Positions 754 to 31,111 of a DNA stretch of 43,839 nt are shown piece by piece; within the stretch, counting starts at the first letter, position 1; the number at the start of each line of letters is the position of its first letter. A program made the translations under genes and the position numbers. Source of the DNA: Nemertoderma westbladi. Taxonomy: Eukaryota > Animalia > Xenacoelomorpha. The notes beneath the pieces are model-generated. The model was not told the origin of the DNA. It saw nothing but the letters and a program-made list of their open reading frames with translations, and ran no database searches. The stretch is taken from assembly GCA_032718475.1 (NCBI GenBank), contig JAUCBJ010000171.1, positions 1 through 43,839 of the forward strand, written 5' to 3'.

Positions 754-2035
754 TGGAGTGCCGGTATTTTCAATCTTATTGCTTACCGCAAATAAGATCG
801 ATAGCTATTATTGTACGCGCTTTTATAGACCTTCAGCAGTTTAACCTGCCGAAATTTATATGTCTTTATTGATAATCTGCCTTTTGTAAGATGATAAGAT
901 TTAATACAAAACAAACCAAAACATTAGCCGAAGCCAGTCCATGCGCGTCCAAATGACCCGTTTATAACACCGGGAGACTGGATTCGTGGGCTTAAATTTA
1001 TTTGCGGTCAAGCCTACTGTATTATTCGATTGATTATTAATATATAATCTCTGACAAATATTATTCACTTTAGGGAAATATTAGCAGTTCCTTTTAGGAC
1101 GTGGCGCTCTACCTATGTAAACAGAGTTATGACTGATACTACACACAACTATATGGCTTAAATTTCAAGCATAGGGCGCATTCTTTAGGAATGCTTTATT
1201 ATCAGATCCAATCAATTTACAATCACGTAAGCTACCGGTAACGCACAACACTGCTCACTGATATGCCGACAGTTACTGACTTTGATCAGGTATAAAGAGA
1301 TATGCACTGGACTCAGGTAGTGTCTGTCAAACAACATTAGATTCACTACAAACACAATAATAAAGTCGCCATTGTTGTACATAACCCTTCTCTCTAACCT
1401 GTAGTGTATCAAGGATATTGGGAAAATGTGGGTTGATTATTGATATTCTTCAACTAATAACATCCAATTATACTGATACAAAATTACAAACAGTAAAAGC
1501 AGTATGACGGTAGGTTAAGATACAATTAGATTGCAAGTGATGAGATCAATGAATTAAAATGAGTTGATAATTCATAAGATGAGATAATAGCTATGCTTTC
1601 TATAATTTAGCCTACTAATGTTCTTACAAAAAGGCAGAAAACATTTCGCTATCTCAAAACGGTCTTAAAACACTGATAATAAAGTCTTAAAATCATAACC
1701 AAAGTCCCGTGACTTTAGCTCTCTTATTTTCCAAGAATCCCGTTCAACACATGTAATCAGCAGTGAGACAGGATAATTTCAGTTCAGTAGCTCGGGATTG
1801 GTCGAAATCAGAACTAACTCAACGCAGGGCTATGGGTAACTGGGGCAACCTTCCCAAGCCGGCTGTCCAATCGAACAGCTCAGATCCCTCCTAAAGGATT
1901 CCAACGCCTTGGAGGGGGGAACTGGTTAGCAAAGAAAACAAATCAGTCATATCCCAGAAAAACCTTTACAGTAGGTTTCAGAGTATTTTAGCGTATGGGG
2001 GAAAAACTGGGTTGCGGGGCGAAGGGCCAGTTACA

Positions 2036-3117
2036 TCCCACAGAAGCTTTTACACTAGCTGACGAAATAAAAAACGCTATCACTACATTAAGATCTATTG
2101 GACAACTCGATTACGGGAACACCCCTACAGTCCTATTAAAAATCATAGGAAGACTCCACCATCGACTTCGTCGGGAGTGGAGGAAGATCGAATACCAGCG
2201 GGAAGAAAGGGGTGGATTTTTGAAATTAGAGGATGTGTACCTATTAATATCCAGGGAAGCGGTGGTGGAGACCCGATCCAACTACACCGACCAACACATT
2301 GTAGCAGAAGGAATCACCTTACCATCCTCAAACCGACAAAAAACCCCAGACAACATCCACCAAGACAGCCACTTACGCCACACCGACAGATACCCGACAA
2401 TTTTCGGACGGTAGTAGAGTATCCGCACCTATTGGGATCAAACAGACCAGACAGCAATTGAGTGCAGACTTTAGCGGTTGCCAATACTGCGAGCAGTTAG
2501 GCAAGCGGCATACCAGTCACAAGCTAAGAGGTTGTCGGCTGTTTCGCGAGTTAAACTCGGAAGAACGAAGACTACAGATATGGCCATTGGATTCTTGTTG
2601 GCGGTGTACTCAACACGGACACGTCCGCAAAGATTGCCCAAATACGGACACCTGTCCATCCTGTGGACGCAACCATGATGGTTTGCTCCATACCGACAGT
2701 CATACGCTGACAAAACGCTTCACTAGGGAACACCCAGAAGCAGTAGCGAAATGTAATACGGCATATAAGAATCGAGAATCAAGAACAACTCCAACTTTCG
2801 TGACACATATTCGGGATTGTTTCCCAGAGCAATCCGGGTCTTCTGATGAGGAAACCGAGGACGACGACATATACTCAGATGGAGACGAACAACCATCGAT
2901 TGCGCTTCTGACGCCTGACCAACTAAAAGGTTTTAGCGTAATTCCTGTCAAGATTACTGGCACAAAAGGGAGCAAACGAATCTACGCTATCCTGGATTCA
3001 GCCTCATCTCACAGCTATGTGGATGAGAAGGTAGCTGATGTCGTGACGGATCTCCGACAAGGTAAGAACGTCAAATACACTGTAAGTAGTATGCGTGGAC
3101 AATGTGCAATCCAGTGA
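2036..3117 (+). pseudogene. gag: Element A gag C-terminus, three Pao-type zinc knuckles and aspartic protease N-terminal half
   Basis: LADEIKNAITTLRSIG...LRREWRK...LEDVYLLISREA aligns with element B FANKVEKALIVLKTLD...LRNKWRK...LEEMSSFLNYEA. Knuckles CQYC..H....C, CWRCTQHGHVRKDC, CPSCGRNHDGLLH. Protease YAILDSASSHSYV. Frameshift at the A6 run 2338-2343 and another near 3110. Confidence 0.88.
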
Positions 3118-6100
3118 CACGAGTTAAGTTGAACTTAGACACTCTTCTTCCGAAATCGCAACATAGCGAAAAGGAGAGGTCTTTGTTACCCTTTAAGGAT
3201 TTAACCTTTGCAGCCACAAAGGACTTTAGTAACCTACTGGGTCCAGTGCCGGAACAATCCTTAGAGGACCGTAAGTATTTCAGACACCTTGGTGTACCTG
3301 AATGTCCTGTTAACTATAGATCAGTAGCAATGCTGATCGGGACAGATCAATTCAACTTACATCAAGTGTTGGAAACCAGACCATCGGTAGTCGTAGCAGG
3401 AAATGCATACGCCTGTCGAACTCCGATAGGTTGGTATACTGGAGCGCCTGTGCGCACACTAGATATAAGTGATGAGGAAGACGATGTACAAAGTACATGT
3501 AGTTTATTAACTACAACTTCAACTCATTCCTTTTCACACGACAAAGACTATACTACACTACGCTCGACAAAACACAACAACGTTACAAGTACGACGTGTG
3601 TAGCGAGTACGATAAGTCACAAAGAGCAGCCAATCCACAAGGTTAGTGTAGAGATTGAGAAGGAGCGGAGTCAGGCAGAGGTTCCATCAACGATAGATGA
3701 TAACGCCGGAAGGCTTGCGAGTCTACCTCAACCAATAACCTTAACAATGCCCGTTGATGACGATGCGTTAAGAAATCATCAAGTGGAACAAGCCGCGCTA
3801 GACAAAGAATTAACAGAGAAAACTATCAAGTGGTTGGAACAAGATACAGCCGAGCCTGGTAGTTACGAACCATGTATGTCGGAACAAGAGAAACAATCTT
3901 TAAAGATCATGGAAGATACTATCCGCCAGACGAAAGACGGACATTATGAGGTAGGGATGCTATGGCGTAACCAACGTCCTAAACTTATAAATAATTATCC
4001 GCTAGCCTTAAGACGTTTAAATTCAATATGACAACGTTTGTTGAAGGACGAGAAAGCCCATCTGCAGTATAATACTCAGATGGAGACGTATTTGACAAAA
4101 GGATACGCTATCAAAATGACAAACCCAGAGATTGTAACAGACCAGACATACTACTTGCCACATCACTACGTGAGACACCCCGATAAACCAGATAAAGTAC
4201 GTATAGTTAATGACTGCGCGGCTCTGTTTGAGGGAATGTCTCTCAATAGTGAGTTGATGGATGGACCAAACATGAATAATTATCTCATGGGGGTGATTAT
4301 GTGCTTCCGTCAGCGCCAAGTAGCATTTACTTGCGACGTTGAAGCCATGTTTCACCAAGTGCGAGCGTTAGAGCGAGACAGAGACAGTTTGAGGTTCCTC
4401 TGGTACCCGGATGGAGACTTAAGTCAACCACCGGCAACTTACCAAATGAAAGTTCGCGTATTCGGTGCCAGGGACAGCCCAAACTGCACTATGTACGCCC
4501 TAAAGCAAACCGCTAGGGATCAGAAACATAAATATGACCCAGAGGTAATCCAGATCGTAGAACGAGATTTTTATGTGGACGATGGATTACAAAGTTGTGA
4601 CATAGTAGAACGTGCTATCACAGTAGCACATCAATTACGGGACTGTTTAGCAGGCGGAGGTTTTAACCTCACCAAGTTTGCTTCAAACAGTGCCGAATTA
4701 GTAAATTCATTCGAAACGACTGAACGTGGGGGTGGTGAGATTGACTTAGAGTTTGAACCACAACCGACGACAAAGGTGTTGGGACTATTTTGGGACCCGA
4801 ACACAGACAACTTTCGAGTGAAAGTAAGACTGGACGCTCAAGGGGATTCTCTGACAAAGAGGTCTTGCTTGTCGAAACTAAGCAGACTGTTCGATCCATT
4901 AGGTTTCATCAGCCCAATAATACTGCAAGCAAGAATATATATGCGCAGTATTTGGAAAGATGGACTGACATGGGACGAACCGATCTCATCCGAACAAGTG
5001 GACTTATGGAAGACTTGGGAGGCGCAATTATCTTCACTAGAGGATTATTCCATACCCCGGGTGTACTTTCCATTACAGACGACATTTCCTGACAACTTAG
5101 AATTACATTGTTTTTCCGACGCCAGTGACAACCGCTTTGGAGTGACAGCGTATTTGCGCAGACAAGTAGACTCAGATGAGTTTGATGTTTCGCTCATTAC
5201 TTCTAAGGCTAAAACCATGCCTACTAAGTACATGACAACACCACGCGCTGAGCTACAAGCCGCAACTCTGTCAACGACAATTGTAAACCTCATACAGACT
5301 GAACTACAATCAAGTTTACAGATATTTTATTGGACTGACGCGACGTTAGTTTTATTTTATATAAACAATGACACACTTGAATTTAAGACATTTGTAGCCA
5401 ACCGTCGCGCAGAAATTCTAGACCGTTCAATAAAGGAAGATTGGCGACATTGTCCCGGACCACAAAATCCAGCTGATATTGCATCACGAGGAATGATGCC
5501 TGAGGAATTCTGTAAACCAGAAAACAAGGAATTTTGGCAACACGGACCACAATTCTTACAAAGAGCAACACAACATTGGCCGCCACTATACGATAACAAG
5601 TCTAACACTATTCCTAAGGACGCCGAAATTAAAAAACCAAAGAAAGGTAAAACAAAGAAAAAGACAACGGCGAAACTTAAGAAGAAACCAAAGGCGAAAT
5701 GGAAGAATATAACTCACAAAATTAAGGCAGGAAGACTTGCGAGCCTTTCTCAACCAGACGTATCGCCAGACGGTCAACCAGACATGTTACCAGACGTATC
5801 GCCAGACGCTCAACCAGACACGTTACCAGACAGTCAACCAGACATTTTGCCAGACATGTCACTAGACGTTTCGCCGGATGTTCCGCGAAACATTTTACCA
5901 GACATTTCACAAGATGTTCTACCAGACACTAGTAACATACTAACACATAGTAAAGCCGCAGTTTCCCTATTGGAGCAGCCTTCTATTGACAAACCACCAA
6001 ACTTGACACCCTTGAGTAACCATAAGTACAGTGAAACCTCATGTATTACAGATGTGGGTAGTACCTACGCAAATGTAAATACAGGTGTTACTTTACGCTC

Positions 6101-6143
6101 AAGAGACATACCAACCTTACAACCTTACGAGACCTGGGATTAA
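3102..6143 (+). pseudogene. pol: Element A pol: protease C-terminal half, reverse transcriptase and RNase H (Pao peptidase-A17 region)
   Basis: MLIGTD, RTPIGW, GHYEVGMLW, YYLPHH, KVRIVND, DVEAMFHQV, FGARDSP, FYVDDGL, FDPLGFISP, LHCFSDAS, PRAELQAA, YWTD, WRHCPGPQNPADIASRG. ORFs 3102-4031 and 4038-6143 are in one frame, split by TGA 4029-4031 (probably CGA>TGA). Confidence 0.95.
5753..5927 (+). repeat. 12-bp coding minisatellite (PDxx tetrapeptides) in the RNase H-integrase linker
   Basis: Recurrent CCAGAC; peptide PDVSPDGQPDMLPDVSPDAQPDTLPDSQPDILPDMS... Confidence 0.85.
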
Positions 6144-7896
6144 TATCGGCAGAAAATTAAATTTACCGAAACCCAGTGATCCCATAGAATTTAAACCACC
6201 ATTAGGAATCGACACACAAAGTACTGACAATCAAGGTAAGAAGACGAAGAAGGACAAATTACTTGTAGACCCGGACGGATCAACAGTCAAGAAGGGAATA
6301 CTTACCGGCGGACTCGTGGGCCCATCTAGTAAATCAAAACCTTCCAAATTCTCCATTGACTTACCTGATGACGTCATAAATACTTACGTCGACCGTATTG
6401 TAAATTTGACAGATTCTTGGACAAACGCGTGCCGAAAATTAGCGTGGATTGTACCTTTTGTACAATACGTTAAAGACAAACGCAACTTTACACGTCGACT
6501 CACATTGACTGAGATTGACAGATGTGAAATTAAATTAATTCGCCATTACCAATTGCGATATTTCGCACGCGAATTCACATCTATAAGTCAAGGTCAACCA
6601 ATCAAGTCGTCACCAATATTGAGTTGGAGTCCGATAATTTATAATGGCTTAATTTGTCATAAATCTCGGCTTCAAAACATCGACTTTAATACTGATTTTA
6701 GATACCCGATAATAATACCGCAACATCATGAATTACAACGTGCAATGATACTGGACGCACATTTACATCTGAAACACGCTGGAAGACACCACTGTCTTTC
6801 TTATTTACGTACAAGATTTGTATTAATTAGACCCAGTAAAGCGCTAAGTTCAGTGACACGTATGTGTATTATTTGTAAGAAGGTACATTCTAGAATAAGT
6901 ACCCAAGAAATGAGTGAACTTCCACAAGCAAGACTACAGGCATTCAGACCACCTTTCACAGAGACTGGAATTGACTGCTTTGGTCCCATACATACGAAAC
7001 GTGGACATATACTAGTAAAACGCTGGGGACTGATTTTCACATGTATGTCCAGTAGGGCAGTTCATATAGAACGTGTGATGGATCTTTCCACCAATGCTTT
7101 TATACTAGCACTGCGGCGATTTATCGCTAGACGCGGGCTAGTAAAATGCTTGTACTCAGACCAAGGTACAAACTTTGTTGGTGCTCGAAATGAAATTGCT
7201 AGAGCCTTTAAGAAATTAGATCATGATCAAATCTCAAACGAACTACGTCCTTACAAGATTGTTTGGAAGTTTAATCCTCCAGATAGTCCATGGAGAGGCG
7301 GAGTCTGGGAGAGATTGATTAGATCTATAAAAACAGCCATGGCAAAAGTAATTCCAGTAAACCACATCTTGACAGACGACCAACTGACCACATTGTTTGT
7401 TGAAATCGAGGCAATACTAAATACTAGACCAATAGTATTAGTACCCGATGACAAACAATCCCAGTTTGCTTTAACACCTGCACACCTGCTAATGCAGGCA
7501 CCGACTACATTAATGCCTATTTCGATTCCAACAGAAAGCGATAGCTACGGTAGAAAAGCGTGGAAAATCACGCAACTACTAGCTAACAAATTCTGGGAAA
7601 TATGGCAAAACCATTATTTGCCCTCTATTTCTGCCAGAACAACCTGGTACAACAATACTCGCGCTTTAAAGCCGGGAGATCACGTGCTGTTAGCAGAAGT
7701 GAATTTAAAAAGACGCTTCTGGATAACAGGTGTAATTTTAGACACACATCCATCTATGGATGGAGTGACAAGAACCGTGACGGTATGGACAATTGACGGT
7801 CGTACAGTAGACAGACCGACTCAACGTCTCGTACTTCTTGAAGAGACGCGAAACAAGTCTGGAGATTACAAGTCTCCAACAAATGTTAGTAAATAG
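6085..7896 (+). pseudogene. int: Element A integrase (HHCC + DDE + Pao C-terminal domain), frameshifted from the upstream pol
   Basis: HLHLKHAG...CIIC, GIDCFGP, RAVHIE, YSDQGTNFVGA, PWRGGVWERLI, EIEAILNTRP, LTPAHLL, FWEIWQNHYLP. Confidence 0.95.
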
Positions 7897-8557
7897 TAAG
7901 GAGTTTACAAATAGATTTCCACTTACCTGTACGCTGTAGTAAAGACAGCGGTAGAATTCCATTGTCTTTATATGCGAACATTGAGGGTAGTACCCTTATG
8001 TGTCACATAGGAGCGGGATTTGTAGGTATAAGAAATGGAATTCTACTTGGAACTCACAATATTGAGACATTTTCGAAATTTTAGACAATCCATTTGGATT
8101 TGAAAATTTTTTAAAATTTTCTCCAGTGAATAGATTTCAGGGTACAGTCGGGTGGAACTTAAAATTAGAGAAACAAGAGAATGGAAGACTCGCGAGCCTT
8201 TCTTAAATTTTAATAAAATTTACACGGTCTTGTTTCAATAAGTTACGTCGAATAATATACTTCCCTATATTTATTACTAATTCTTGATTGCTTATTTTCT
8301 GATAATAGTTTGGGAGCAAAAAGTGAGTATTTTAGACTCACAGCCAGTTTAGCCCAAAATCGTTTTTATTTCGGCAAAAATTTTAGATAAGAAACAGCGT
8401 GTCATTAAAGAAACCCTAGATCTTAGGCTATGGGTAGGAGGTTAGAGCGTTGTCGAGCCAAAAGGGCAGACGAAAACTCTCACATCTCCTCACAACTAAC
8501 AATAAACTCTGTTGTATTCCCTCTAGTAGTAATGATTATGTAACCATACCTCTAATA

Positions 8558-11500
8558 ATGGCGAAGGGGATACATGGAGAGCCGAGATAGGGATATGATA
8601 TCCAAGAGGAAGCAGCAGCGCCATTCGAACGATTTGGAGCTAAGGATTACACCATATTTGGAATAAAGGATTTATCAGAAAGTACAGCGAAACTCGCAAA
8701 GACTAAATATGACTCGAATGTATTAAAGAGAAGGCAAAACGCATTAAATGAAAGAATCGAAAGTTTACGCAAAACCTTCAATGAACTTTACCCGTACGAC
8801 GCTTTATGTGATACGGGAGATATTAGCGAAGATCCCGATACCGAAATTAGTCGTTTGTATCATACCATGCAATACCTGAAGGCGCATGAACCTATGCCCG
8901 CGGTACGCGATGAATTCGATGGAATGCATCTTTACAGACGAACTCGAGGGGACGATAGAGAAACGAAGGAAGCATTTTCAGTTTATAAACTTTATTATCA
9001 ATGTGGTGCTTGTATGCACGAACAACGAAATGCGATTCCGATGCGTTTGAATAAGGAAAATCCCGAACCGATATTGGCGAGGTGTTCGAACCATCAACAA
9101 CTACGCTACCAGGAAGGAGGGTATCCTTTATCGAATCCATATCATTCATTCGCTATGTGTGGACCAAAGGCGGGAGAAATTGTCGTTTACCCATCTAAGG
9201 TTGTTGAACCCGATGCATTTGAACTTACGCTGGACGAGGCGACTCAGTCAACCCGCGAAAAGAAGGAAGTTCTTAGCCTATACAGAGCCTACAAGGCTTT
9301 CGAGAAAGGTGAGATGGAAGAATGGGGCGGAAGACTCGCGAGCCTACCTTACCATTGGACGTCACACGATCAAACTTCAGCTAAGGAGATGACACCGGAA
9401 GTTTTCGAGAGTATAAACTTTGCTCAAAACGTTATTCAGAGACTACAGATTGCATCTCCGGAAAGGACAAGAGAAATGCAACCGTATAGTACTTCGACTA
9501 CGAAACCATTGAGTACGACACTCAATTTCCCTATTAGTATACCAGTTCGACAAGATACGACGTATGAAATACCTATTGTGGATCATCCGGAAATCATTTC
9601 GAACTTAGAGTTTCTTCCTGCAGTCGTTCTAAGCGATATGGTTAAGATATATGATTTACGTAGACATATTACGTAAAAGGTCGTGCATAATGTTCCGCCT
9701 CATATTCAAGACTTTAGGGAACTGGATAGAGCTGGCGCTGATATAGCTCCGAGTAACCTGAAAGGATATTTAACCAGAACAATTCGCTTATGGATTGGAA
9801 CAGGAACCTTTGAGTCGGATACAGATATCGCTGCGGACTGGCAAGGTAAAGTCATTCGTTTCGAAGACGAAAAGGACATAGAGAAGATTTGGCAACCTTC
9901 GGAAGAATTACTGGACGAATGGAATAGGACGTTTAGATCGTTTCAGGAAAACGGTTACATGTTTTATGACAACGAGGGCGGCAGCCATCAGCAGAGTCTG
10001 ACCTCCAAGACTATACAAATTAGAGCGGCAGATGGAGTTTTGCACGTTTTCAGTAGACAAAGGAGCGACAAGCGAATGCCGATTCCTCCAGAAAGTACCA
10101 AGCGGCACCATTTCATCACTAATATAGTAAAGAAGATGGACCAGGCTTGCAATATCGATGCTAGAATGTTACCAAAGATGGTGAGAAATATGATTTTAGA
10201 TAAAACCGTTGTAAAGATTGGATCAGGAGTGAGAGAGGACTTAATTAGCGACTTCGCCGGCATGTCGGACAGTGACGACCGATTACCGACACCTTACGTC
10301 GACACTCGACCTCTTATACTGTGGTCTATAGAACAAGGATACTTCCGTGAGTATGATACTCAGAAAACCGGAACTGGATACATTTCCTACCTGATGTTTA
10401 ATTGGGATTACAAGGAAAGTAAAAGAACAAAGAATATCGAAACGTATGGAGAAGGTGATACTCCGGATATAAATGAGTTTGAATCACAGCTCAAATGGAG
10501 AGGATGCGTATATTGGGCTATTACTTCACCTCCAAGAGCGGTACTACAATATTATTTAGCGATAGAGTCATCAGTGAATGTTTGCTTAGTCGCCGACATT
10601 GTGTCTCGGACTCTTAAAAGACATCCACTTTGCCTCGGAGAAGATCATACATTCTACGTGGAAGGGAGAATTCATACCGACGTGTTTAGACGATTTCTCG
10701 AACCCTTCTACAATTCCGACGCTCAGTGTAATTCCTTCACTCGAGCAGGATTTAGTATATTTCGAGACGTGTATCTTCGCTGTGCGGGATCTCTTATCGA
10801 AAGACCATCTATGTTTACATTGTTACCCTATGAAGGAGAACGTATCGTGGAGCTTACGGACGAATCACGGCAGACGCGCGCGCCTATCGGTCACTTAGGT
10901 GATGATTTCGAAGTAACAACGATCATTGACGATCCTTTAGAGGAACTTCTTGAGATTGAAAGGAACCTCCCGAAGAAATCTCAGACGGAGATTCGACAAC
11001 TAGAAGCAACAGATGCTGTAGTTTGCATACAACCTTCTGAAAGATACCAACCTATCGATCCAGACGATTATGATTATAGTGTGGGAGGAAGCGCTCGACC
11101 CATTGAAGATCTTATATATGAACGAGTGTGGTACCCTGCTAATACAATGTGTGGTAAATGTGGCGTCACTGGACATCATTCGACAAAGTGCAGTGGAAAG
11201 CACATTACTACGACTCAACTAATCTGTGGATGGTGTGGAGATCAAGGGTCCCATACATTTTATACTTGCTGGAGATTTATGGCTCAATGCACATACTGCA
11301 ATATAAAGGGACATCGAGCATCTGAATGCCAATTGCGAGACATACCTTACTAACACGAATCTGTAAAACTCGTGCGAAAACTATTTGATGATTGGGAAGA
11401 TTTAGCTGACGAACATGTATCGGCGCAAAGAAGACAGTTCCCGATGAGAGCGCATCTTGGATTTTGGGCGGTAAATCCCCAAACGATGATGTCGGAAGGA

Positions 11501-12280
11501 TATATCTCCGCTATGCCACAATATGACGAACTCATCGAGGTAGTTGATATTTTGCCTCACGATAGTGGATTTCGAGTTGTGCGCGAATACTTGTTACAGA
11601 TACACCCTGACAATAAGAATACATGGAATTTCCAGAAAGTCGTTAATCGTATCACGTATGGTGAATTTGATCGTTTCCGAATGGAAAAGCGGAACAAGGA
11701 AGCTTGGTTAACCGTCGCATGGGCGTACCGAGCCGCGTTCTACCATAAACATATACGAGCGAGCGTATTCGAGGAAGAGGAGGTCCTAGAGGCGACCAAC
11801 ATACCAGCTACTCCGGTCGCGCCGTCTGCACGTCACCCTCGGGAGGACGGACAGCATAGGATCATAAGGGTTCAGAAAGTGGGCCAACAATTAAAGAAAA
11901 CTATCAATGTTGAAGAACGAAGGGGATACGAACCGACTATTCGAATTACACGGGATACGGTTTCGCTTCCCAGAGAACCGCAAGGAGGATCGGGACATAT
12001 ACCAGCTGATCAAAAGGGGGCGCAAGCTTCTCTTGGGTCTGCGTCGCCCGCTTCCCGTGCGTTCCCAGACGTTTTACCAGCGGTAGACACAACCGATCGG
12101 TCACGAGGAATTGGACGAGGATTTGGGATAACTAAGAGACGAATATGTGAGGAAATGGTCGTACCATCTCCCAACGTCCATAGTAAACCAGTGACTCGCC
12201 CCACAAGTCCTATATCACGAGCTAAATCACCGATACGCAGTTTTCGAGGACGCGGCAGAGCGCGATCAGCTAAGCGATAA
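8558..12280 (+). pseudogene. Element A extra ORF (~1240 codons): Cys/His-rich N-terminus + DEDDy-like 3'-5' exonuclease + 3 CCHC knuckles + basic tail
   Basis: ATG 8558 and track ORFs 8855-9676, 9683-11353 and 11372-12280 share one frame, split only by TAG 8588-8590, TAA 9674-9676 and TAA 11351-11353. Exo I GYMFYDNEG (9953-9979), Exo II VVKIGSGVRED, Exo III YLAIE (10553-10567). Knuckles at 11150-11329. Confidence 0.8.
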
Positions 12281-12376
12281 ATAAAGTGTTATATTTAAAA
12301 GGACTAATTATTCCGAACTTGCAAAACTTTATAAAGTGGGAAGGAAAGAGTGGACGGAAGACTCGTGAGCCTTTCT

Positions 12377-12830
12377 TTGTATTGTTTATGCAAATTGTAT
12401 TGTTTATGCAAATTGTATTGTTTATGCAAATTGTATTGTTTACGTAAATTGAATTGTTTATGTAATTTGTATTGTTTACGTAAATTGAATTGTTTATGTA
12501 ATTTGTATTGTTTACGTAAATTGAATTGTTTATGTAATTTGTATTGTTTACGTAAATTGAATTGTTTATGTAATTTGTATTGTTTAAAATTTATATTGCT
12601 CTAAATTTATGCAATTTATATTATTCTAAATTTATGCAATTTACATTGTTCTAAACTTATGTATTTGTATTGTTCCAATTTTGAAATTCAGAAGGTTTTA
12701 TATTTAGAAGGAATTTATATTTGAAAGATTTATATTTGAGATGCAAAAGAGTTTATATTGTTCTAAACTTATGCAGTTTATATTGTTCTAAACTTATGCA
12801 GTTTATATTGTTCTAAACTTATGCAGTGTA
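12377..12830. repeat. AT-rich 18/36-bp then ~25-bp tandem repeats in the 3' non-coding region of element A
   Basis: TTGTATTGTTTATGCAAA units, then 36-bp TTGTATTGTTTACGTAAATTGAATTGTTTATGTAAT units, then TTATATTGTTCTAAACTTATGCAGT units. Confidence 0.9.
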
Positions 12831-13343
12831 TATCTATATTTAGTAAAGATTTACATTTAGAAAGATTTATATTTAGAAAGTGCTATATTTGTAGTCATTC
12901 CAAACTTACGCAATTTATTGTTTCGAATATTATGCAATTTATATTTTATAAAGAAGCAGTATTTGTATTCGCAGTAAATAGAAGGCAAGAGCAGACGGAA
13001 GACTTGTGAGCCTTTCTTGTGATTTATTCCGAACTTATGCAATTTGTTTTATATTTAAGTAGTATTTGTATTTGTGATTGTTTGAATTTATGCAATATTT
13101 GAGATGCAATAGATTTATTTTGGTGAATTTAATTTAGATTTATATTGTACTTACTTAATAAAGCCTTAAATACGTAAAGTTTGAATTTGTAATTATTTTT
13201 GTATCGAATTATTATGTAGAGGTATTATTGTTGAGATTTAATTTGTAAATATGTAAGTACGTCCCAAGTATTCCATAATTTGATTTAGTATTGGTGAAAA
13301 ACGTATATTTTATGCACGATAATATCCTGTTTTCATGGAGCGG

Positions 13344-13975
13344 TATAGAATTATATTCTCATAAATGCCGTGGATTTTCAAAATTTTATTTTGTTCGAAT
13401 TAACTTTGCTATAAAGATTACATTAAGTCCTCATTTGCATTTACCATATCTATTTGTATAACATTGTTCAAGTGGTTCAGTAGCTCAGTCGGTTAAGCGT
13501 TGGAAATTCGTGTAGTAGGTATCGAGTTCGAATCCTAGTAAGTGTGAATTATTTTTTGTGCTGAGTTTCAACTCATTTAAATTAACCGCTACAAATTAAA
13601 TTGCATTTGCTCAAGGTAGATTAACCAATAGGATTGCAGTTATTAGATAGTAACCAATGTCGTGCAAGATACGTGTTCGCTGGACCAATGGTTATCTTTA
13701 AAAACCTATTAGAACTCATAGAACAATCTAGATTTATCTCGATTGATTGCAGCACAAATTTGCTATAAAAGGTGCGATTTTGTTCATTAGTTACCAGATT
13801 ATCACTTATTAGTTATCTATCTCATTAGTTTCTTGTTACGTTTATTGTATATTAGTTTTGTAATAAAAGTTAGAAATACTTGTTACATCTGTTTTTTACT
13901 ATGTTTCACCACGGTGAACCCAACTGAGGGACAGATGGCTGGCTAAACATAGGACCGCGGCGATAGACGGGAACA
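13344..13975 (+). repeat. Putative 3' LTR of element A
   Basis: Follows an imperfect hairpin and GGAGCGG (13337-13343). Contains CCAAT at 13625, 13654 and 13685, TATAAAA 13764-13770, AGTTATC/TCATT initiator-like repeats resembling those in element B's LTR, and AATAAA 13862-13867. Candidate end GGGAACA 13975. It starts TA rather than TG and there is no second copy, so the limits are uncertain. Confidence 0.5.
13474..13557 (+). ncRNA. tRNA-like Pol III unit (pseudo-tRNA or SINE head)
   Basis: A box TAGCTCAGTCGG 13481-13492, B box GAGTTCGAATCC 13524-13535, T6 run 13552-13557. Acceptor and anticodon stems do not pair, so not a functional tRNA. Confidence 0.6.
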
Positions 13976-17547: not shown

Positions 17548-18106
17548 TGTTAGCTTATTCAATTCCGCTAACACAAACCCATAAAGTAAGCCGTTAAGCA
17601 ATATTGGGGGCCACGAGGTTGATTACCCAATCTCGTGCCACCCCAATAAAATGGGAAGGAGAAACACACAATAAGGGTCAGGGGCCACACCCCTGACCGA
17701 GAGAGAATAGTAGGAGTGAAGGGAAACACTCCAAAGGGCGCCAACAGAGACATTAGCCAATGGGAGGGAGGCACCGGCTAGGTAGAGTAACAAGGCCATC
17801 CCGTGCAATATAACCAGTTTACAGTAATCAGTTATCTCAGTTATCTCATTGTGTTGGTCGGTTTAGCTAGGGTAGAACCGGTACTTCAATTACCGTCGTC
17901 GTACCTACCGTATCTGAGACTTCATCATTGTATATTCCAGTTACCTCATTTATACCATTATCTATTGAACTTATGCAACTATACTATTATACCTGAGAAC
18001 TTTGTACAGCGAACAATAACTCTTTACCTTTTACACACACACGGCGGGGACGCGACGCGTGAATCGAAAACCGGATAAACCGGGATCCTCTCTGGATCCC
18101 GTCACA
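17548..18106 (+). repeat. 5' LTR of element B
   Basis: TGTTAGC...CGTCACA; matches 31112-31670 except at 17567, 17785, 17799 and 17993. CCAAT 17757, TATAA 17809, TCAGTT 17828 and 17837, 8-bp hairpin CGGGATCC/GGATCCCG 18081-18101. Confidence 0.98.
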
Positions 18107-18417
18107 GTAATTGAAACCTAGCAGCTACCCTAATAGTAATTGAAGTCTAGAACTCCAACCATACCGATCTAAAGAGGAGATGAGTGACGTAACGCCAACG
18201 CGGACCCCGGAGGAAGAACCAACGATCTGCGAGGCCGTAACCAGACGGTATAGGCCCACGACGCCGGACCCATCGGTAATGGGTCATCCGGCAGATCAGG
18301 ATGAAGGGGGCCGTCTGGAGCCAGAGATCGAGCCGAGAGGAGCGGGAGCCGAGTTGGGAGAAGGAGAGGGCGAGAGGGACGGAGAAGAAGACGAGTCGAC
18401 ACGGAACGAGGGTCGAC

Positions 18418-18639
18418 GTACCGATGTCGCCGGCCAGCCACAGGCCGAGGGCGACGAACGGCCCACCGAAACGGCGACGGTGGGGCCGACGGTATGATGC
18501 CGGACCCGGAGAGATGGGGGAGATGTCGGTACCGATGTTGCCGGCCAGCCACAGGCCGAGGGCGACGAACGGCCCACCGGAACGGCGACAGTGGGGCCGC
18601 CGGTACGACGTCGGACCCGGAGAGACGGAGGAGAGGTCG
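18418..18639 (+). repeat. 111-bp (37-codon) tandem duplication in gag
   Basis: GTACCGATGT(C/T)GCCGGCCAGCCACAGGCCGAGGGCGACGAACGG at 18418 and 18529. Confidence 0.95.
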
Positions 18640-19298
18640 GCAACGAGGACGTCGGGGTTTCTGATCGACTTCGACGGGCCTACAACGCGACCCGGAAGCT
18701 ACTCAAGGAGGCCAAGGAGGGGGCGAAGATAGATGAGGTAAAGTTAACAACAGGACTAGGTGAGTCGGATAGACATTTTAATTATCTAATGCGCTTTGGG
18801 CAGAGAGAACTGGCCAAGGAGAGAGCGAGAGGGGTTGCAGAGGAACTGTGTGATTTATGGCGGTGTAGGGGTATGCAACCTATTGCAGTGTACGTAGGGC
18901 CATACTTAGCCGATGCCCGGGGTATAAAATTTGTGGGTTGGAGGAGACCTGAGGAGGGTGAATCCGAGGTTGACCCCGAGGATTCGGTCTCGTCGGTTGG
19001 AAGGAATTCCAGTTCCGGGAGGCGGGGGAAAGTTAGTAGATCGGGAGGGCGGAGGGAATCCGTCACAACCGATAAGTCTGCTACATCCTCCGTAAAAGAA
19101 AGACGGGTGAGAGAGATATATGCCGCGTACCATTTCGACCTGATAGCGCAAGGTCAGAGAGAAATAAATAGACGGTTTGAGGAGGGGAGAATGCTGCTGG
19201 ACAAGGAAATGGAACTGATTAGAGAAACCGGAGAGAGGGCCGAAAGGGCCGCGAAAAGCCTTAGGGACTGTGAGGAAATAGGGAGGAAGGAGCAAGAG

Positions 19299-19497
19299 GA
19301 GCGTGAGGCGAGAGAGCAGAGCGAACGCAAGGAGCGTGAGGCGAGAGAGCAGAGCGAACGCAAGGAGCGTGAGGCGAGAGAGGAAAGCGAACGCAAAGAG
19401 CGTGAGGCGGAACGTAAGGAACGTGAGGCGAGAGAGAAAAGTGAACGCAAAGAGCGTGAGACGAGGGAGGAAAGTGAATGCAAAGAGCGTGAGGCGA
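19299..19497 (+). repeat. 33-bp repeats encoding a charged coiled coil (EREAREQSERK)n
   Basis: GAGCGTGAGGCGAGAGAGCAGAGCGAACGCAAG, about 6 copies. Confidence 0.9.
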
Positions 19498-20157
19498 GGC
19501 GAAGGGAGGGAGCTAGGAGAGAGGCGGAATTGGCCAACCAGAACGCACGGGAGTGTCGGGAGAGAATAGCAAGAGAGAAGCTTGAGCGGAAAGAATTGGA
19601 AAAACGCCAAAAGTGAGCTTATAGAGTACAAAGCTAGACACACGTGCTAACTAGAACTGGCGCGGGTAGGGGCATCTGAGAGCGGGACTGGCTCGAATAT
19701 TTTCGAGGAGCCAAGGGCCGTGGATACATTTATTAATACCCCACTTACAGGGACCGCACGACAGACACGAAACTGTTGTGACCATACGGGCGGGGGGGGG
19801 GGGGGGGGTAATAATAATAATACAGTAGACGACGTTATTATTAATAGTACCGTATTAGATAACCCTAACCAAGCCTTTATTGCAGGAAATACTTTACCTA
19901 GTAGCAGTAATTTAAATTTAAATACAAATAATAATTTCAATTTAAACGTGCAAAATAATCCGAATAATAATTTAAATTTAGAAAATAATAATAATTCAAA
20001 TAATTTAAATAATGATCCAAGCCCGAATTTACAAAATAATTTAAATAGTGTAGTCGCGCAAAATAATCCAAATGATTCTGTTTCGAACGAACAAAATAAT
20101 TCCGTTTCTAATATAGGTGCTATTAACGCGAACTCGTCGGACGTGTATAGCCTGACA

Positions 20158-20337
20158 GACGGCGGCCTGGTAGGCCACGTAGTTGGTAGGTAGGAGGTGG
20201 TGGGGTTGAGTCGACCCGACGGCGGCCTGGTAGGCCACGTAGTTAGTAGGCAAGAGGTGGCGGGGTTGAGTCGAGCCGACGGCGGCCTGGTAGGCCATGT
20301 AGTTAGTAGGCAGGGGGTGGCGGGGTTGAGCCAACCC
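20158..20337 (+). repeat. 60-bp x3 repeat in gag (DGGLVGHVVSRQEVAGLSRP)
   Basis: GACGGCGGCCTGGTAGGCCA at 20158, 20218 and 20278. Confidence 0.95.
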
Positions 20338-22644
20338 GGAGTAGGCCCGATCGGCCAAGTACTAGTGGAGGGAGAGGCAGGGGTAAGTGAACCCAGCCGC
20401 AGTGAAAATGTTGTGTCGACTGGAGAGGGGTGTAGAAGAGAAGTAAGAGGTAGCGGTAAAATATGTGGCGAAAGGGGGGGGGGGCTACAGGAGCCCCACA
20501 ACGAGAAGTTGGTGGCGAGAGGGGGGGGGGGGGCAGAGAGTGTCCCACAGGCGTCGGCGGATAATGCGCGGGCCGAATCAGGTAAACCGCAACACCCGGC
20601 GACGGAGAGTAATAGGGGGATTGCGAGTATCCCCAGCGGCGTGCGATCGACCAGAGAGAGGCAGGTTGACGTCGCGAGAGGGCAGACGAAGCGTCGAGCC
20701 CGATCAGAAGAGGGAAGAAGAACAGTGGGGTTTAACCGGGAGGTCGACGAGAGATCTCAAGAGCGGGAATACTGCACTGAAGGGAGAAGAAGAGAAGACA
20801 GCAGAAGAAGTATTGCCGCGAACGACAGGAGAGTGAGGACGGATAGTGAGCCGTTGGTAGTCGAGATGGAAAGAGAGAGTCGGTGGGGTCGAACTTCGGG
20901 AGATTGCCGTCGTCCCGGAGAGACGCGACCTGACGAGACGCGTTACGCGTCGAGAGAGGGGTACACGATGTACCGGCACGAAGACGAGAATAGTAGAGGG
21001 GGTCGAAGAGAAACTTTCCGACGGGATATACCTACAGATCGAGAGTACGGTAGCTGCGGGGAGGATTATTCGAGAAGAATAAACTTCGATCCCGAGCAAT
21101 ACATACAGACTGTAGGACATACTATAGGCCTTACTGCACATACCATAGGCCATGCTGACAGAAATAATGTAGGCGATAGGATAGCGCGGACAACGGAATT
21201 AAACCCGGAAGTCGCGGAGTACATACCGGCAGGTAGGCCAGAAACTGATAGGCCTATACCGGTACCAGTACAGCAGTATGACTACAGCATGCAAGGACAT
21301 AACATATACCCAGGGGAGGGGGGAATTATTGCGGATAGATGCATGGGCCCCAATATATTAACATCAACCCCAGTACCAAACATACCGGTGGGGGGGGGGG
21401 GGGGACAGGGTGACATTCCCCCATCGCAATATCAACAATATACCCCGATAGGAGCAAGAACAACGAGACCCTTGGATGGAAATAGGTCATGTGACACAGA
21501 AATATGGAGGGGGCCGCTACCCCCAATGATATACCCAAGCCAAAGAAAGGCAGGAAATATGACGGGCGGACCACACCCAACAGGATAAATTATACAACAT
21601 CCATCGAATCCATTGGAAGCGCAGGCGATGGGGATGACCACGTTGATCGATGCATTAAAAACAAGGATCGAATTACCACCCGTGGAACCATTCAAATTCG
21701 ATGGGAGTAGGCCGGAAGAATATCTCCAGTTTCGGCGTATGTATAGTAACGAAATACTAACAAAGAACTTGACACAGGCGGAGTGCCTAAAGTATCTGCA
21801 AGTATACACAGGAGGCCCAGCATACGACATCGTGAGGCAATATCAGGGCATAGAGGGCGGTTTCACGACGGCATGGCGGGCACTGGACAGGGAATACGGG
21901 CACCCGGCCAAGATCATCAGGCAGACCCTGAGAGGCATAACATCGGGTGGCCTACAGGATAATCCCGTTAGCATTAAGACATTCGCGAACAAGGTCGAGA
22001 AGGCGCTAATCGTGTTAAAGACGCTAGACGCGCCATATGAACTCAACGCGTCCAACAACATCACCACGATAGCGCAGGCACTACCGATGTGGTTGCGCAA
22101 CAAGTGGAGGAAAATCGCTTTCTCCACTCGAGATAGGAAGGGTGCGGAACCGGGTTTAGAAGAAATGTCAAGCTTCTTAAACTACGAAGCTGAACTAATA
22201 ACCGACCCAGTCTATAGCGAAGATAGCCTGGGAAAGGGACCGAAGACGGATTACCATAGACCGAAACCAGAGCACAATATGTCAAACGCATTACCGAAGC
22301 TCAGGCAATCACTGCCATATGCAGCAACGCAGGGGACTGCAAGTCCACAGGTAGCCGAAGGAAAGACCACACCATGGAATGGACAGGGGAATAACAACAA
22401 CACGAACAAATATAATCCCAGTACGTCCAGTAGGCCGAACCCAAACAATAAGAATAGTAGGGACTTTGGTACAAACGCAGCTGCGATACGCAATGCACTG
22501 TACAAGGACGGCTACGACCCAAAGAGCAAATGCCAGCTACATACAAATGCGCTTCATCAAACCATGAACTGCAGGTACTGGCAAGCGCTACCCAGGGAAG
22601 ATCAGGTAGAATACGCGGCGAGGAATGAGATCTGCTCATGATGT

Positions 22645-24880
22645 GTGATGAGCGGACATAGAGCTAGGCAATGCAAGGAGACGCCGGTCAAGTTCGGTCA
22701 AAGGAAAGGCCAAACGATAGCAACGAGCACAGTAGGGGCGAGGAAGAGAGGAACGGTGCTACTTGGGGTAGTGCCTATGCGAGTGATTGGAGAAGGCAAT
22801 CGATCAGTAACAACACTAATGCTGGTCGATAGTGGAGCTGCCTTCACACTAGTCGAGGATTGGGTGGCCGAAGAAATAGGATTGAGAACGAGGCCAAGTA
22901 GAATGGCGGTAACAACCATCTCCAGTAAAGATGAGGTCCTGGAGATGAGAACCGGACGGTGCACCATCGCAGCAATAGCACCAGGATGCGATTATGGGGC
23001 GAGCATCGACCCCATCCAAGTGATAGAGTCAATAAACATCAATGCCAGACGGCCAACCAACATCGAGGTCGAACAATATAAATTGCTGGATGATAATCGA
23101 CTTCTCAATCCCAGAGGCGGACGTTAGGAAGGTATCCATCATAGTAGGAATGGACTGCCCAACGGCCCACGAAAGAATGCAAACGGTCTTCGGCGAAGAC
23201 AAGCAGTGTGACCCGGTGGCGATACTGACACCATTCGGGTGGACGCTGAGTGGCCCAATCAAGAGTAAAATACCATTTAGGATGTCGGAGACATCAGGAT
23301 GCATGTTCGCGGGAACTATGCAGGAAATGGGTGACGAGAGAGCAGAGGAGCAGCTTAAGAGACTGCTCAGACAGGATTTTGAAGGATTAAAGGAGATCGG
23401 GGTCGGGACCTCGGTAGAAGACAAGCAGGCTCTACAGAGCGTAGAGGAGTCTATGAGGTGTGATGAGGGGCGGTATACCATAGGGATGGTATGGAAGCTA
23501 CCAAAGCTACCGCTATCCGATAATAGAGGGATGGTACTCACGAGGCTTCGTAAGTTGAAGCAGACACTAAAACGGAGCCCCGAGAAGAATGAGTACATCC
23601 ACAGAACGATTAAGAAGTACGTCGAGAAAGGATGGGCCGTGGAGTTACCGGTCGACGAACCAAACACAGATAGGACGTATTACCTACCACTCCACGTGGC
23701 TTTAGACCTGAAGAAAGGTAAACTGCGGATGGTAGTTGACGCATCGGCAAAGACCAACGGAAAATGCTTAAACGACTATCTACTAGAAGGTCCGAACATA
23801 TACAACTCAGGGATAGAGGTCCTACTTAGATTTAGAGATGGGAAACACGCCTTCACGTGTGACATAGAAGGCATGTTCAACCAAGTCCGTGTAGCGGAGG
23901 AAGATAGCGACAGTCAACGCTTCTTATGGTACAACGGAGACGAAGAACCGTCGATAATACCGACGCACAAGATGGTAGTACAGAACATGGGAGCCAAGTC
24001 GTCTTCATTTACGACGACTATGGCAGTAAGAGATACAGTGAAGGGGAAGGAGGATAGATACAGCACTAGGGCCGTCGATATGATTCGAAGCGGCTTCTAC
24101 GTAGACGACGGAATGGAGTCTGGAAATACGGTTAAGGAGATACTGGACACAGGGCGCGAGGTTCACGACATCCTGAAAGGATCCGGCTTTAACCTGACCA
24201 AATTCCAATCCAGTTCGGAGGAATTTATCAAGGCGATAGGGGACGAGAGACCAGAATCGACTATGGATAATCCCACAACAGCCAAAGGGCAGGACATGGC
24301 AAACAAGAGGACAGAGTCTCAACAGAAGGCACTGGGAATCGTGTGGGACAGAGAGACAGATGAACTGAAGTACCAGCTGAGCCAGGAGGGCACAGACGTC
24401 CACACAAAGAGAGGCTATGTGTCATACATAGCAAGAATATACGATCCCCTAGGTCTAGCATCCCCACTATTAGTCACGGGGAAACAGATACTCAAGAGAG
24501 TATACAAACTGAAGGATGAGTGGGACGTAGAGGTACCAGAGGAGATCAAGAAACAGTGGTGTAAGTGGACAGAAGATTTAGAGAAGATGGGAACATACAA
24601 CATAGCGCGAGTGTATTTTCCGGATGGGAACATGACGAATCTGGACCTACACATGTTCTCCGATGCGTCGTTGGAGGCATACGGAGTGGCACTCTATTTA
24701 GTACAACGAGAGGGGGCTCACAAGCCCAGACTGGCCTTTAGCAAAGCAAAGTCAACGCCGCCAGATTCAGCATCATTTCCCAAACTAGAATTGACAGCTG
24801 CCAGACTAGGAGTTAGGGCCACAGCCTACCTAGTGGATACTATTCCCAACATACACACTACTGGACGGATTCCATGGTAG
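22645..24880 (+). pseudogene. pol: Element B pol: protease, reverse transcriptase, RNase H
   Basis: LMLVDSGAAFTLV, IIVGMD, LTPFGWTLSGP, YYLPLH, KLRMVVDAS, DIEGMFNQV, FYVDDGM, YDPLGLASP, LHMFSDAS, PKLELTAA. Frameshifts near 23090 and near 24860 (HYWTDS continues in the next frame). Confidence 0.95.
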
Positions 24881-26736
24881 TGCTTGGCTGGCTACATAAC
24901 GAAAAGACGAGATACCCTATATTCGTCGCGAATAGGGTGGACGAAATAAGGGCGACCACAGAATTGGAAAGGTGGCACTACTGCCCAACGGACGAGAACC
25001 CAGCGGACTTGTTATCGAGGGGCGTGGCACGCCACACTTTCTTGAAGAAGGAAGTATTCTGGCAACACGGGCCACAGTTTCTGAGCGACAAGGAGGCCTG
25101 GCCGCCGATGAGAAAGGTTGACCCGGGCTCAGGAGAGGTAGTGTCAGAAGGAGAAGAGGGAGATTCAGAGGGAGAAGAGATATACTCCCAGATGGTGAGG
25201 GAGATAAGGGACGTGCAACCTAAACCAGAAGAACTGTGCGATAACCCGACGGATAAACTCCTCAACTACAGCTCTAGTTGGTATAAGACCAAGAAATTAG
25301 TGGCGTACTGGAGAGCCTTCAGGAATTTCCTTGCGGGAGTTGGCAAAGGCAAGAAGATCAGGGCAACAATAGATCTGGAAGAAGCGGCCAAAGCAGTAAT
25401 CCGCTATGAACAACGGAAGAGCTATGGCGACGAGGTGGAACGCGTCGGTAAACAACAGCATCTCCGACGGGATAGCGAGTTGATCACGCTGTCACCACAA
25501 CTTAATGACGACGGGATTCTAGTAATGAATTCTAGGGTGGGATACAACAACAGCATAGTCGTACCACCGAAACCCATCATCATTCCCACAGGATCGCCAA
25601 TAGTCCACCAGATTATCTGGGACTCCCACAAGTCGATATTGCACGGGGGCACCAACCGAACCCTTACGGAGATACGGAGGACCTTTTGGGTCAAGCAGTT
25701 GAGGAAGAAGGTAAAAGCAGTAGTGGGGCAGTGCCAGACCTGCCGACGAGCGAAGAAGGAGCGAGCCATACAAGAGATGGCACCACTACCAGCGAGTAGA
25801 GTAAGACAGCACGACCCACCATTTACACATTGCGGTGTGGACATGTTCGGGCCGATAAAGATCAAGGTGATGCGGCACACGGAGAAACGCTACGGTATTA
25901 TCTTCGTATGTAACAACACGCGGGCGGTAGGGATAGAACTCGCCCAAGATGCAACCGCATCAGCATTTATTAATGCATTAGAAAGGTTCAGAGACCGCAA
26001 AGGTGGGACAATCGCAGTAATGTACTCCGACAGTGGAACCAACTTTGTGGGAGCAGAGAATGAGATGGCAGAGGCCTTGGACATCTTGGAAGGGGAAGAA
26101 GTCAGGGCAGCCATGAGACGACGACAAGTAAAGTGGGAGAGAAGGACGCCGTATGCACCACATACACTAGGATGCATCGAGATACTAGTGGGCAGTTCGA
26201 AGCGTCTCATGACGAAGTTAATGAACACCCACATGGTCACGGAGGACATCTTGAGAACAGTACTTGCGAAGTGCGAGGGTATCATTAATAGCAGACCGCT
26301 ATATCCGGAGAATGATGACCCTGAGTCATTAGATGTGCTGACGCCCAGCCATTTTCTAATGGAAAGGCCAGCGACCATCGATATGCGGGGTGTAGACCCA
26401 GATGACATACACTCCCGCCAGAGTTGGAAGGTCGCTAAAGCGATAAGCGCAGAGTACTGGAGAAGGTGGGTTGAGGAATACCTACCCATGCTTCACAAAA
26501 GAAGCAAGTGGAGGAAGTCGAATAGGGAGTTAAGAGAGGGAGATCTCGTAATCGTTATGGATGATACTATCATCAACAACCAGTGGCGGTTGGCAAGAGT
26601 TGTAGGCACTTACTCCGATGAGGACGGAAGAGTCCGATCGGTAGAAGTGCGGATAGGTGGCAAGATAGGTGCGAAAGACAGAAAACCCTACAGGAGAGCT
26701 GTAGGGAAATGCTGTCTATTAGAAGGGGCACCTTAG
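24874..26736 (+). pseudogene. int: Element B RNase H C-terminus and integrase
   Basis: FVANRV, WHYCPTDENPADLLSRG, HKSILHGG...CQTC, GVDMFGP, YSDSGTNFVGA, EGIINSRPL, LTPSHFL, YWRRWVEEYLP, DGRVRSVEV. Confidence 0.95.
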
Positions 26737-26845
26737 ATCGTTTGTTAGAGAAGAGTTTAGTCGTCCAAGTTTTGGACTGAGGGGGGTGGGATTGAGGGCG
26801 AGACGCCCTTCCCACACATAAAAATAAAAATAAAATGAATAAAAA

Positions 26846-27385
26846 TTAGAGTTAGTTAGTTAGGAGTCAGTTAGAAGGTACGTAGTACCTATAATTAGAA
26901 TTAGTTAGTTAGGAGTCAGTTAGAAGGTACGTAGTACCTAGAGTTAGTTAGTTAGTTAGTTAGGAGTCAGTTATAAGGTACGTAGTACCTAGAGTTAGTT
27001 AGTTAGTTAGTTAGTTAGGAGTCAGTTAGTTAGAGGTGTTAGAGAAGTAGTAAGAGGGTACGTAGTACCGGTGGTTAGTAGAGTTAGAGGTTAGTAAGAG
27101 GGTACGTAGTACCGGTTAGTAAGAGTAGAGCTGGAAGTTAGTAAGAGGGTACGTAGTACCGATAGTTAGTGGAGTTAAGAGTAGTAAGAGGGTACATAGT
27201 ACCATTAGTTAGTGGAGTTAGTTAGAGGGTACGTAGTACCATTAGTGGAGTTAGAGTAAGAGTTAGAGGGTACGTAGTACCGCTAGTTAGGGAGAGAGAG
27301 AGTAAGAGTTAGAGGGTACGTAGTACCGCTAGTTAGTTAGAGGTTAGTAAGAGGATACGTAGTACCGATTAGTAAGAGAGAGAGG
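26846..27385. repeat. Tandem array of 11 GGTACGTAGTACC hairpin motifs in (AGTT/AGAG)-rich spacers
   Basis: Motif starts at about 26877, 26926, 26977, 27057, 27101, 27148, 27191 (variant), 27228, 27269, 27315 and 27354 (variant). Confidence 0.92.
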
Positions 27386-31073: not shown

Positions 31074-31111
31074 ATGCTATCTTCTCACCGGGAAGATAGC
31101 ATGGGGGGGAG
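31074..31111 (+). promoter_or_regulatory. Hairpin plus polypurine tract of element B
   Basis: Perfect 11-bp stem ATGCTATCTTC (31074-31084)/GAAGATAGCAT (31092-31102), then GGGGGGGAG directly before the LTR TG. Confidence 0.9.

Follow-up and report, generated by a model that had tools for sequence, protein, structure and literature searches.

The stretch of DNA analysed here (the window) comprises the 43,839 nucleotides of contig JAUCBJ010000171.1 of Nemertoderma westbladi (assembly GCA_032718475.1, forward strand). It contains two retrotransposons with long terminal repeats (LTRs), both of BEL/Pao type, designated element A and element B, each with an extra open reading frame (ORF3) downstream of pol. 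Element A holds nine dispersed copies of a quasi-palindromic motif whose conserved unit is a 20-nt hairpin, and not the peptide GRLASL or a CTCGCGAG DNA site. In element B there is a second hairpin family, unlike that of A. Within each element the copies share their orientation, and between the elements the spelling differs. By analogy with the dispersed packaging signals of RNA viruses, the hairpins may be family-specific RNA tags bound by the element's own knuckle proteins, an explanation which we hold with about equal measures of belief and doubt.

Six copies of the motif in element A were described in a first-pass annotation, and all six were found on the plus strand without mismatch: at 3708..3728 in the linker between protease (PR) and reverse transcriptase (RT), at 5730..5750 in the linker between RNase H (RH) and integrase (IN), at 8183..8203 in the spacer between pol and ORF3, at 9329..9349 in the N-terminal part of ORF3, and at 12356..12376 and 12997..13017 in the 3' untranslated region (UTR). 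The pattern was not matched in any of 100 dinucleotide shuffles of the window, even at three mismatches. The count of six was incomplete, as three further copies were recognized on the plus strand of A: 6307..6327, which reads GGLVGP; 6781..6801, inside the H2C2 (zinc-binding) domain of integrase and the weakest by sequence; and 10869..10889, in the ORF3 linker before the knuckles, which is in another codon phase and reads QTRAPI. Six of the nine copies are coding, the spacing along the element is about 0.5-2 kb, and 7 of the 21 positions are invariant. A 12-nt tandem repeat directly follows the copy at 5730, and an 18-nt tandem repeat that at 12356. The copies at 12356 and 12997 are not independent, because both lie within one 38-nt duplicate (12340-12377 and 12981-13018, 89%). 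The additional flanking pairing described for the non-coding copies is visible, but in these two it likewise cannot be counted as independent.

The three added copies were found with a profile built from the six first copies by sequence only. This profile was blind to pairing, and the test is therefore not circular. The search of the plus strand of element A at a cut-off of 8 bits produced four further matches, three of which (10869, 18.1 bits; 6307, 17.0 bits; 6781, 11.4 bits) keep all six of the pairs held by the first copies, namely 1-20, 2-19, 4-17, 5-16, 7-14 and 8-13. Each of the three contains a two-sided change: pair 4-17 is G-C for A-U at 6307, where 8-13 is U.G, and pair 8-13 is G-C for U-A at 10869 and A-U at 6781, a copy with all eight pairs formed and a CCAC loop. 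Among 1000 third-order Markov copies of element A, 132 matches reached at least 10 bits; the full set of pairs was intact in two of them, and in neither with a two-sided change. None of these simulations gave two matches of 16 bits. The fourth profile match, at 5008, keeps three of the six pairs and was rejected, as was a candidate at 2148.

Over the nine copies 61 of 72 cells are paired (covariation 0.233 vs 0.114; 1 of 500 shuffles; the tool attaches a caveat about relatedness). At 6-15 seven copies have A.C, one has A-U and one G.U (3708, changed on both sides), while four copies do not pair at 3-18. Eight of the nine loops read YGYG, two of them UGCG. The added copies differ in sequence yet keep the stem by two-sided changes, one in another reading frame and one in the integrase domain, and the hairpin is therefore regarded as the conserved unit. 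The covariance model of the family matched its nine founding copies and their reverse strands only, the next match scoring 9.3 bits. Pattern scan and covariance model agree with the annotation that the motif occurs in neither element B nor the flanks. Its proposals of a family-specific cis signal and of an RNA hairpin are supported by the covariation in the added copies, by the absence of the motif from B, the flanks and 80 control loci, and by the second family in B. Its account of the loop variants by CpG deamination is weakened because element A is not depleted in CpG (observed/expected 0.98 in gag-pol and 1.28 in ORF3); the eight YGYG loops, moreover, contain six T-for-C variants and no A-for-G variant. 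Rfam families searched in 1900-14000 gave no covariance-model match to the motif and one match (E=1.9) elsewhere in that range. A role as internal polypurine tract was rejected: purines make up 12-13 of the 15 bases upstream of four A copies, a bias that the remaining five and the B copies do not show.

The hairpins of element B, all on the plus strand, number eight copies at six sites, with a 5-bp stem closed by U-A and a 3-nt loop with a central G. Three copies (starting at 20161, 20221 and 20281; 20161..20299) belong to a 60-nt tandem repeat in gag and count as one independent site. The others are located at 25018..25036 in RNase H, just after the NPAD..SRG motif, at 27799..27817 upstream of ORF3, at 28843..28861 and 30042..30060 in ORF3, the latter in another codon phase, and at 30983..31001 in the 3' UTR, with one stem mismatch on the plus strand. 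The loops are GGU, GGC, CGU and GGA, and a CpG core is absent from this family. De novo clustering of hairpins, blind to the motif, recovered the A family (eight sites) and the different family in B (five sites), and a family size of five was reached in none of 600 shuffles of either element; the sixth B site was found by profile and not by clustering. Three of the five stem pairs in B vary on both sides, and 34 of 35 cells are paired in this set, which was first picked as hairpins. As an independent check, the sites were held out singly and searched for by sequence alone, and they ranked 1, 4, 2, 1, 1 and 1 among 12,715 positions. Neither the A nor the B model finds the copies of the other family. 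Neither family is confined to a single codon phase, and each reaches into a conserved domain (IN in A, RH in B). A B-type skeleton match at 20882 pairs only via two G.U and was left out. The copies at 6307 in A and 20161-20281 in B are similar in sequence and both read GGLVG, with the stems in different registers; this likeness is a hint of a common origin of the two families.

For comparison, 80 other BEL/Pao loci (496 kb) were searched; they were chosen by likeness to element A, 49 of them are at least 6 kb long, and the set is often partial and includes near-duplicates. De novo clustering gave a family size of one in 44 of these loci, two in 35 and three in one, with none of four or more. 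The A motif was matched once, at three mismatches (locus L051), the best E-value of the covariance model was 1.5, and none of the 80 loci contained three dispersed 20-mers at three or fewer mismatches. The exact 22-nt form of the motif had no match in metagenome contigs. A single pattern match in viral contigs was taken as chance: the contig is unrelated, and the match is a perfect hairpin with a T run after it.

In the proposed mechanism each dispersed self-complementary 19-21-mer is predicted to fold as a small RNA stem-loop. The zinc knuckles of the Gag nucleocapsid, of ORF3 or of both would bind the cognate stem-loops and so gather the element's own RNA into particles, reading the loop guanines (YGYG in eight of nine A copies, the central G in every B copy) and, along with them, the position kept as wobble or A.C. 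Many weak sites, about 0.5-2 kb apart in A, would act together in particle assembly, and the tags would tell the element's RNA from that of neighbouring families. Selection very probably acts on a single-stranded structure, and the working strand is somewhat more likely than not the genomic (plus) RNA. The plus strand is favoured because the loop variants are one-sided, because the changes in 3708 (6-15), 6307 (8-13) and 30042 keep the pairing on this strand only, and because genomic RNA is expected beforehand to be the main single-stranded form. With considerable doubt we would go further, to a lock-and-key system in a deep BEL/Pao lineage: a hairpin barcode specific to the family, running along the whole RNA and even through catalytic domains, would be read by an accessory exonuclease-plus-knuckle protein that protects or packages barcoded RNA and excludes or destroys other RNA.

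How an LTR retrotransposon chooses its own RNA among co-resident families is an open question, and BEL/Pao replication is called 'poorly understood' in the profile of the International Committee on Taxonomy of Viruses (PMC8742986). The hairpins are short and sharply defined, they differ between two neighbouring families, and the knuckle proteins of these families are homologous, which makes a direct cross-binding test possible with 20-nt RNAs. A positive outcome would carry the concept of dispersed packaging signals over to retrotransposons of animals and point to a function for unexplained exonuclease-like extra ORFs. No description of dispersed covarying hairpins in BEL/Pao elements was found in a literature search that had most subscription journals outside its range. 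The words 'hairpin' and 'exonuclease' are both absent from the text of PMC3118150, and neither 'hairpin' nor 'stem-loop' occurs in the available part of bioRxiv 10.64898/2026.03.22.711591, which gives three knuckles as a hallmark of the belpaovirus nucleocapsid.

Several observations weigh against RNA tags of this kind. With flanks of 30 nt the stem probability on the plus strand is below 0.1 in eight of the nine A copies, and the predicted folding of 51-nt windows around the first six copies does not surpass that of shuffles (z -1.4 to +0.6), so that the model needs protein-assisted folding. The copy at 6781 is without loop guanines. The pairing counts in B are partly circular, the set having been picked as hairpins, and the composition of the control set given above limits that comparison. 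The link between ORF3 and the hairpins counts once and not twice, because the trait is found in two elements only, which form one group in the tree. In Rous sarcoma virus (RSV), a change from UGCG to GAGA left the specificity of Gag unlowered and a loop change left packaging unlowered, according to the available text of PMC5035970. As to the strand, 61 of 72 cells are paired on either strand in A, 34 of 36 on the minus strand versus 31 of 36 on the plus strand in B, and for seven of the nine A copies the hairpin taken by itself has the greater stability as RNA of the minus strand (mean -4.0 vs -3.0 kcal/mol).

The last two figures also speak for hairpins of the minus strand, formed in antisense RNA or single-stranded minus cDNA, or for cruciforms, which would mark sites of pausing, protection or recognition, either for RT/RNase H or for ORF3 with its exonuclease-like domain. 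On that strand A.C becomes G.U, which gives an unbroken 6-bp stem, and the possible substrates of DEDDy exonucleases include structured RNA and single-stranded DNA (PMC5408684, available text). However, when energies are computed for DNA, the A hairpins have hardly any stability on either strand (means -1.4 and -0.8 kcal/mol), the changes at 3708, 6307 and 30042 pair on the plus strand only, and the exonuclease call in ORF3 is weak. We consider minus-strand marks unlikely.

Each quasi-palindrome might instead pair with the same site on a second genome copy, as a kissing loop and then as an extended duplex, and thus align both RNAs lengthwise. Eight of the nine A loops are YGYG, self- and cross-complementary when G.U is allowed, and the two-sided changes preserve the self-duplex as well as the hairpin. 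Precedents in the available text of PMC7599994 are the pseudopalindromes of retroviral dimer initiation sites (DIS) and the two-base-pair kissing dimer of stem-loop (SL) D of Moloney murine leukaemia virus (MoMuLV). The 3-nt loops of B and the 6781 loop of A, however, are not self-complementary, and the dimer signals described in that text sit in the 5' leader. Dimer linkage is given a low probability.

A double-stranded DNA site for a dimeric protein, either an element-encoded anti-silencing factor (VANC-like) or a methyl-sensitive host factor (BANP-like), would be a further reading; likenesses to VANC-bound motifs and to the BANP-bound element were suggested in the first-pass annotation. The first six copies come close to palindromes around a CGCG core, and template switching can give palindromes symmetric changes. 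Motif and ORF3 both differ between the families, as VANC motifs and proteins do (PMC5735166, available text). Yet in both families the arms change with complementarity kept, which a base-reading DNA site does not need; the orientation is fixed, the loop variants are one-sided, CpG is not depleted and B is without a CpG core. The 10-mer TCTCGCGAGA, as quoted in the annotation for BANP, has no occurrence in the window, and CTCGCGAG is present in only two of the nine copies. VANC motifs are described in PMC5735166 as 8-9-base sequence motifs within non-coding tandem repeats, whereas six of nine copies here are coding, and the copies are dispersed and covary. A DNA site of either type is improbable for the dispersed hairpins. 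The spacer between pol and ORF3 of B (26874-27370) contains eleven near-identical perfect mini-hairpins in tandem (5-bp stem, GTA loop), one unit with a loop change and one with a stem change, in a register unlike that of the dispersed B family; to read the units as VANC-like sites or as an enhancer array is more fitting here than for the dispersed hairpins.

Functionless copies could have been spread within the element by template switching or slippage of RT, and expanded linkers could have tolerated them. In A, the two linkers within pol do show such expansion (PR-RT 175 aa vs 54-115 in 22 relatives; RH-IN about 290 aa vs 45-56 in 27 relatives), two copies adjoin tandem repeats, 12356 and 12997 form a plain duplicate, and 3708 and 5730 have a few flanking bases in common. 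Such spread explains neither the two-sided changes with a kept mismatch, nor the second family in B, nor the copies within the conserved domains IN and RH, at sites through which the alignment of relatives runs unbroken; we regard it as highly improbable. Two residues at 6781 that are unseen in 58 relatives supply stem pairs, which is only suggestive as evidence against neutral spread and is not counted as independent evidence, because 29 of 255 conserved IN columns hold unseen residues anyway.

Conservation of the peptide (A/G)GRLASL, for example as a protease cleavage site between Pol domains, is largely refuted and hardly credible: the three first coding copies do read GRLASL in frame, in the two linkers and the extra ORF as annotated, and their first 18 bases differ at silent positions only, but the constancy fails in the wider family, where three copies are non-coding and the remaining three coding ones differ in peptide or in phase, codon choice is constrained far more than the peptide requires (about 5e-9 under the codon usage of A), and GRLASL is found in 0 of 120 relatives.

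Element A is a decayed BEL/Pao LTR retrotransposon with a length of at least 11.9 kb (about 1992-13888), cut at its 5' end and with no 5' LTR within the window. Its gag and pol (1992..7896, plus strand) consist of several pieces with stops and frame changes; gag is 5'-truncated and retains the knuckle region, and pol covers PR, RT, RH and IN. Pfam matches in gag-pol are zf-CCHC (E=0.004), Peptidase_A17 (1e-42), Integrase_H2C2 (7e-4) and DUF5641 (2e-20). The LTR-like end of the element (13465..13888, plus strand) has TG...CA termini, uncertain boundaries, and CCAAT, TATA and AATAAA words seen by eye. At its start (13465-13545) tRNA-like A and B boxes are visible by eye, where ARAGORN calls no tRNA; they could be the head of a short interspersed nuclear element or part of the LTR. 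Upstream, at 12377-13100, 18- and 25-nt tandem repeats in the 3' UTR hold 17 of the 25 plus-strand TTAYGYAA words of the window, which we take to resemble PAR-bZIP/C-EBP sites. Element B (17548..31670, plus strand) is a full-length BEL/Pao element of 14.1 kb with two near-identical LTRs of about 560 bp each and a 5-bp target duplication. A TGG-type primer-binding site is not visible after its 5' LTR (18107-18130).

Both elements show the domain order of BEL/Pao (Belpaoviridae), a knuckle gag followed by PR-RT-RH-IN, and Pao-type Pfam domains (Peptidase_A17, DUF5641, Integrase_H2C2). The definition of Belpaoviridae gives two LTRs of 0.2-1.2 kb, a length of 4.2-10 kb and an env-like third gene (PMC8742986). 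The lengths of 14.1 kb and at least 11.9 kb lie outside this definition, as does ORF3, which matched no envelope family, and A and B are variant BEL/Pao elements, not typical members. Between A and B the RT regions have 36% identity. In a tree from a quick search over 60 rows, which included 45 of the 80 control loci (unbroken match of at least 330 residues) and 13 named proteins, A and B group together with a Shimodaira-Hasegawa-like approximate likelihood ratio (SH-aLRT) of 93, both on long branches, so that the grouping is possibly due to long-branch attraction. The best Pol relatives are at most 44% identical, and the viral contigs searched contained no relative. The known range of the family and the named relatives point to an animal host.

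ORF3 of element A (8549..12280, plus strand, with three in-frame stops) and of element B (about 27900-30408) are homologous, with E=5e-6 over the knuckle region and a common LPK..KV/IGS..ED block. In A, three CCHC-like knuckles at about 11140-11340 follow a domain at about 9840-10630 for which sequence comparison weakly suggests an exonuclease-like (DEDD/DnaQ) assignment. This domain matched the NCBIfam model of the Pol III epsilon subunit (DnaQ-type) with E=0.0038, far under the family cut-off, in the ExoI part of A only. A D-x-E and a later D align between the two ORF3 proteins and may correspond to the acidic motifs of ExoI-III. Pfam, PHROGs and PDB held nothing relevant to the domain, and two structure models had predicted local distance difference test (pLDDT) values of 31 and 36, with no usable fold. 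Homologues of ORF3 were absent among proteins of near length, a search of 50% representatives gave two matches, both limited to the knuckle region, and tblastn at E 0.01 found none in the 80 control loci, many of them partial and some near-duplicates. Four of these loci (L012, L035, L042 and L064) have long plus-strand ORFs (649-1194 aa) downstream of the integrase match, unlike ORF3 of A and B; they may be adjacent elements or other extra ORFs. ORF3 of A also contains TLNFPIS at about 9510-9540, which matches the PR/RT cleavage site of HIV-1 (type 1 of the human immunodeficiency virus), probably by chance or else as a retropepsin site. Elsewhere in the window, minus-strand fragments of non-LTR retrotransposons occupy 33090-39800 and include an inverted duplicate of 260 nt and an inverted repeat of 76 nt that is near-perfect; they are CpG-depleted (0.42-0.71), unlike elements A and B. 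An array of an 8-nt microsatellite is found at 43521-43665.

Among known systems, the following were compared in the available text of the cited sources. In RSV, a nucleocapsid knuckle binds the guanines of the UGCG tetraloop in SL-C of the packaging signal psi (PMC5035970). Elements A and B likewise encode CCHC knuckles, and the hairpins of A are short with a pyrimidine-G-pyrimidine-G loop; in RSV a single loop of this type forms part of a 5' leader structure, whereas A has nine copies along the element, its 5' leader lying outside the window. The retroviral dimer pseudopalindromes (HIV-1 DIS, MoMuLV SL-B, SL-C and SL-D) are also quasi-palindromes that form a hairpin or an extended duplex, but the copies in A and B are dispersed and the loops of B are not self-complementary (PMC7599994). 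The VANC targets of VANDAL transposons combine, as A and B do, a family-specific repeated motif with an element-encoded accessory protein; they are 8-9-base double-stranded DNA motifs in non-coding tandem repeats, in contrast to covarying and mostly coding hairpins (PMC5735166).

Exonuclease-like extra ORFs are already known from the Juno and Vesta LTR retrotransposons of bdelloid rotifers, in which an ORF downstream of pol has a DEDDy domain (PMC5408684). These are not BEL/Pao elements, neither a triple knuckle nor dispersed hairpins are described for them in that text, and the exonuclease call in A and B is weak. Egalitarian, which binds localization stem-loops including the I-factor signal, has a 3'-5' exonuclease-like domain that can bind RNA stem-loops with no use of catalytic residues; it is a host protein with additional LOTUS-like domains and is likened to ORF3 by description, not by homology (PMC13186709). 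Dispersed packaging signals are known in MS2, picornaviruses and hepatitis B virus (HBV) (PMC6281560). Those of single-stranded RNA viruses and HBV resemble the hairpins of A and B in being many short stem-loops with a common recognition motif and varying sequence, in coding and non-coding regions alike. Elements A and B, known here from sequence alone, differ in that they are LTR retrotransposons, in that their copies are far more conserved in sequence, and in that two neighbouring families are spelled differently.

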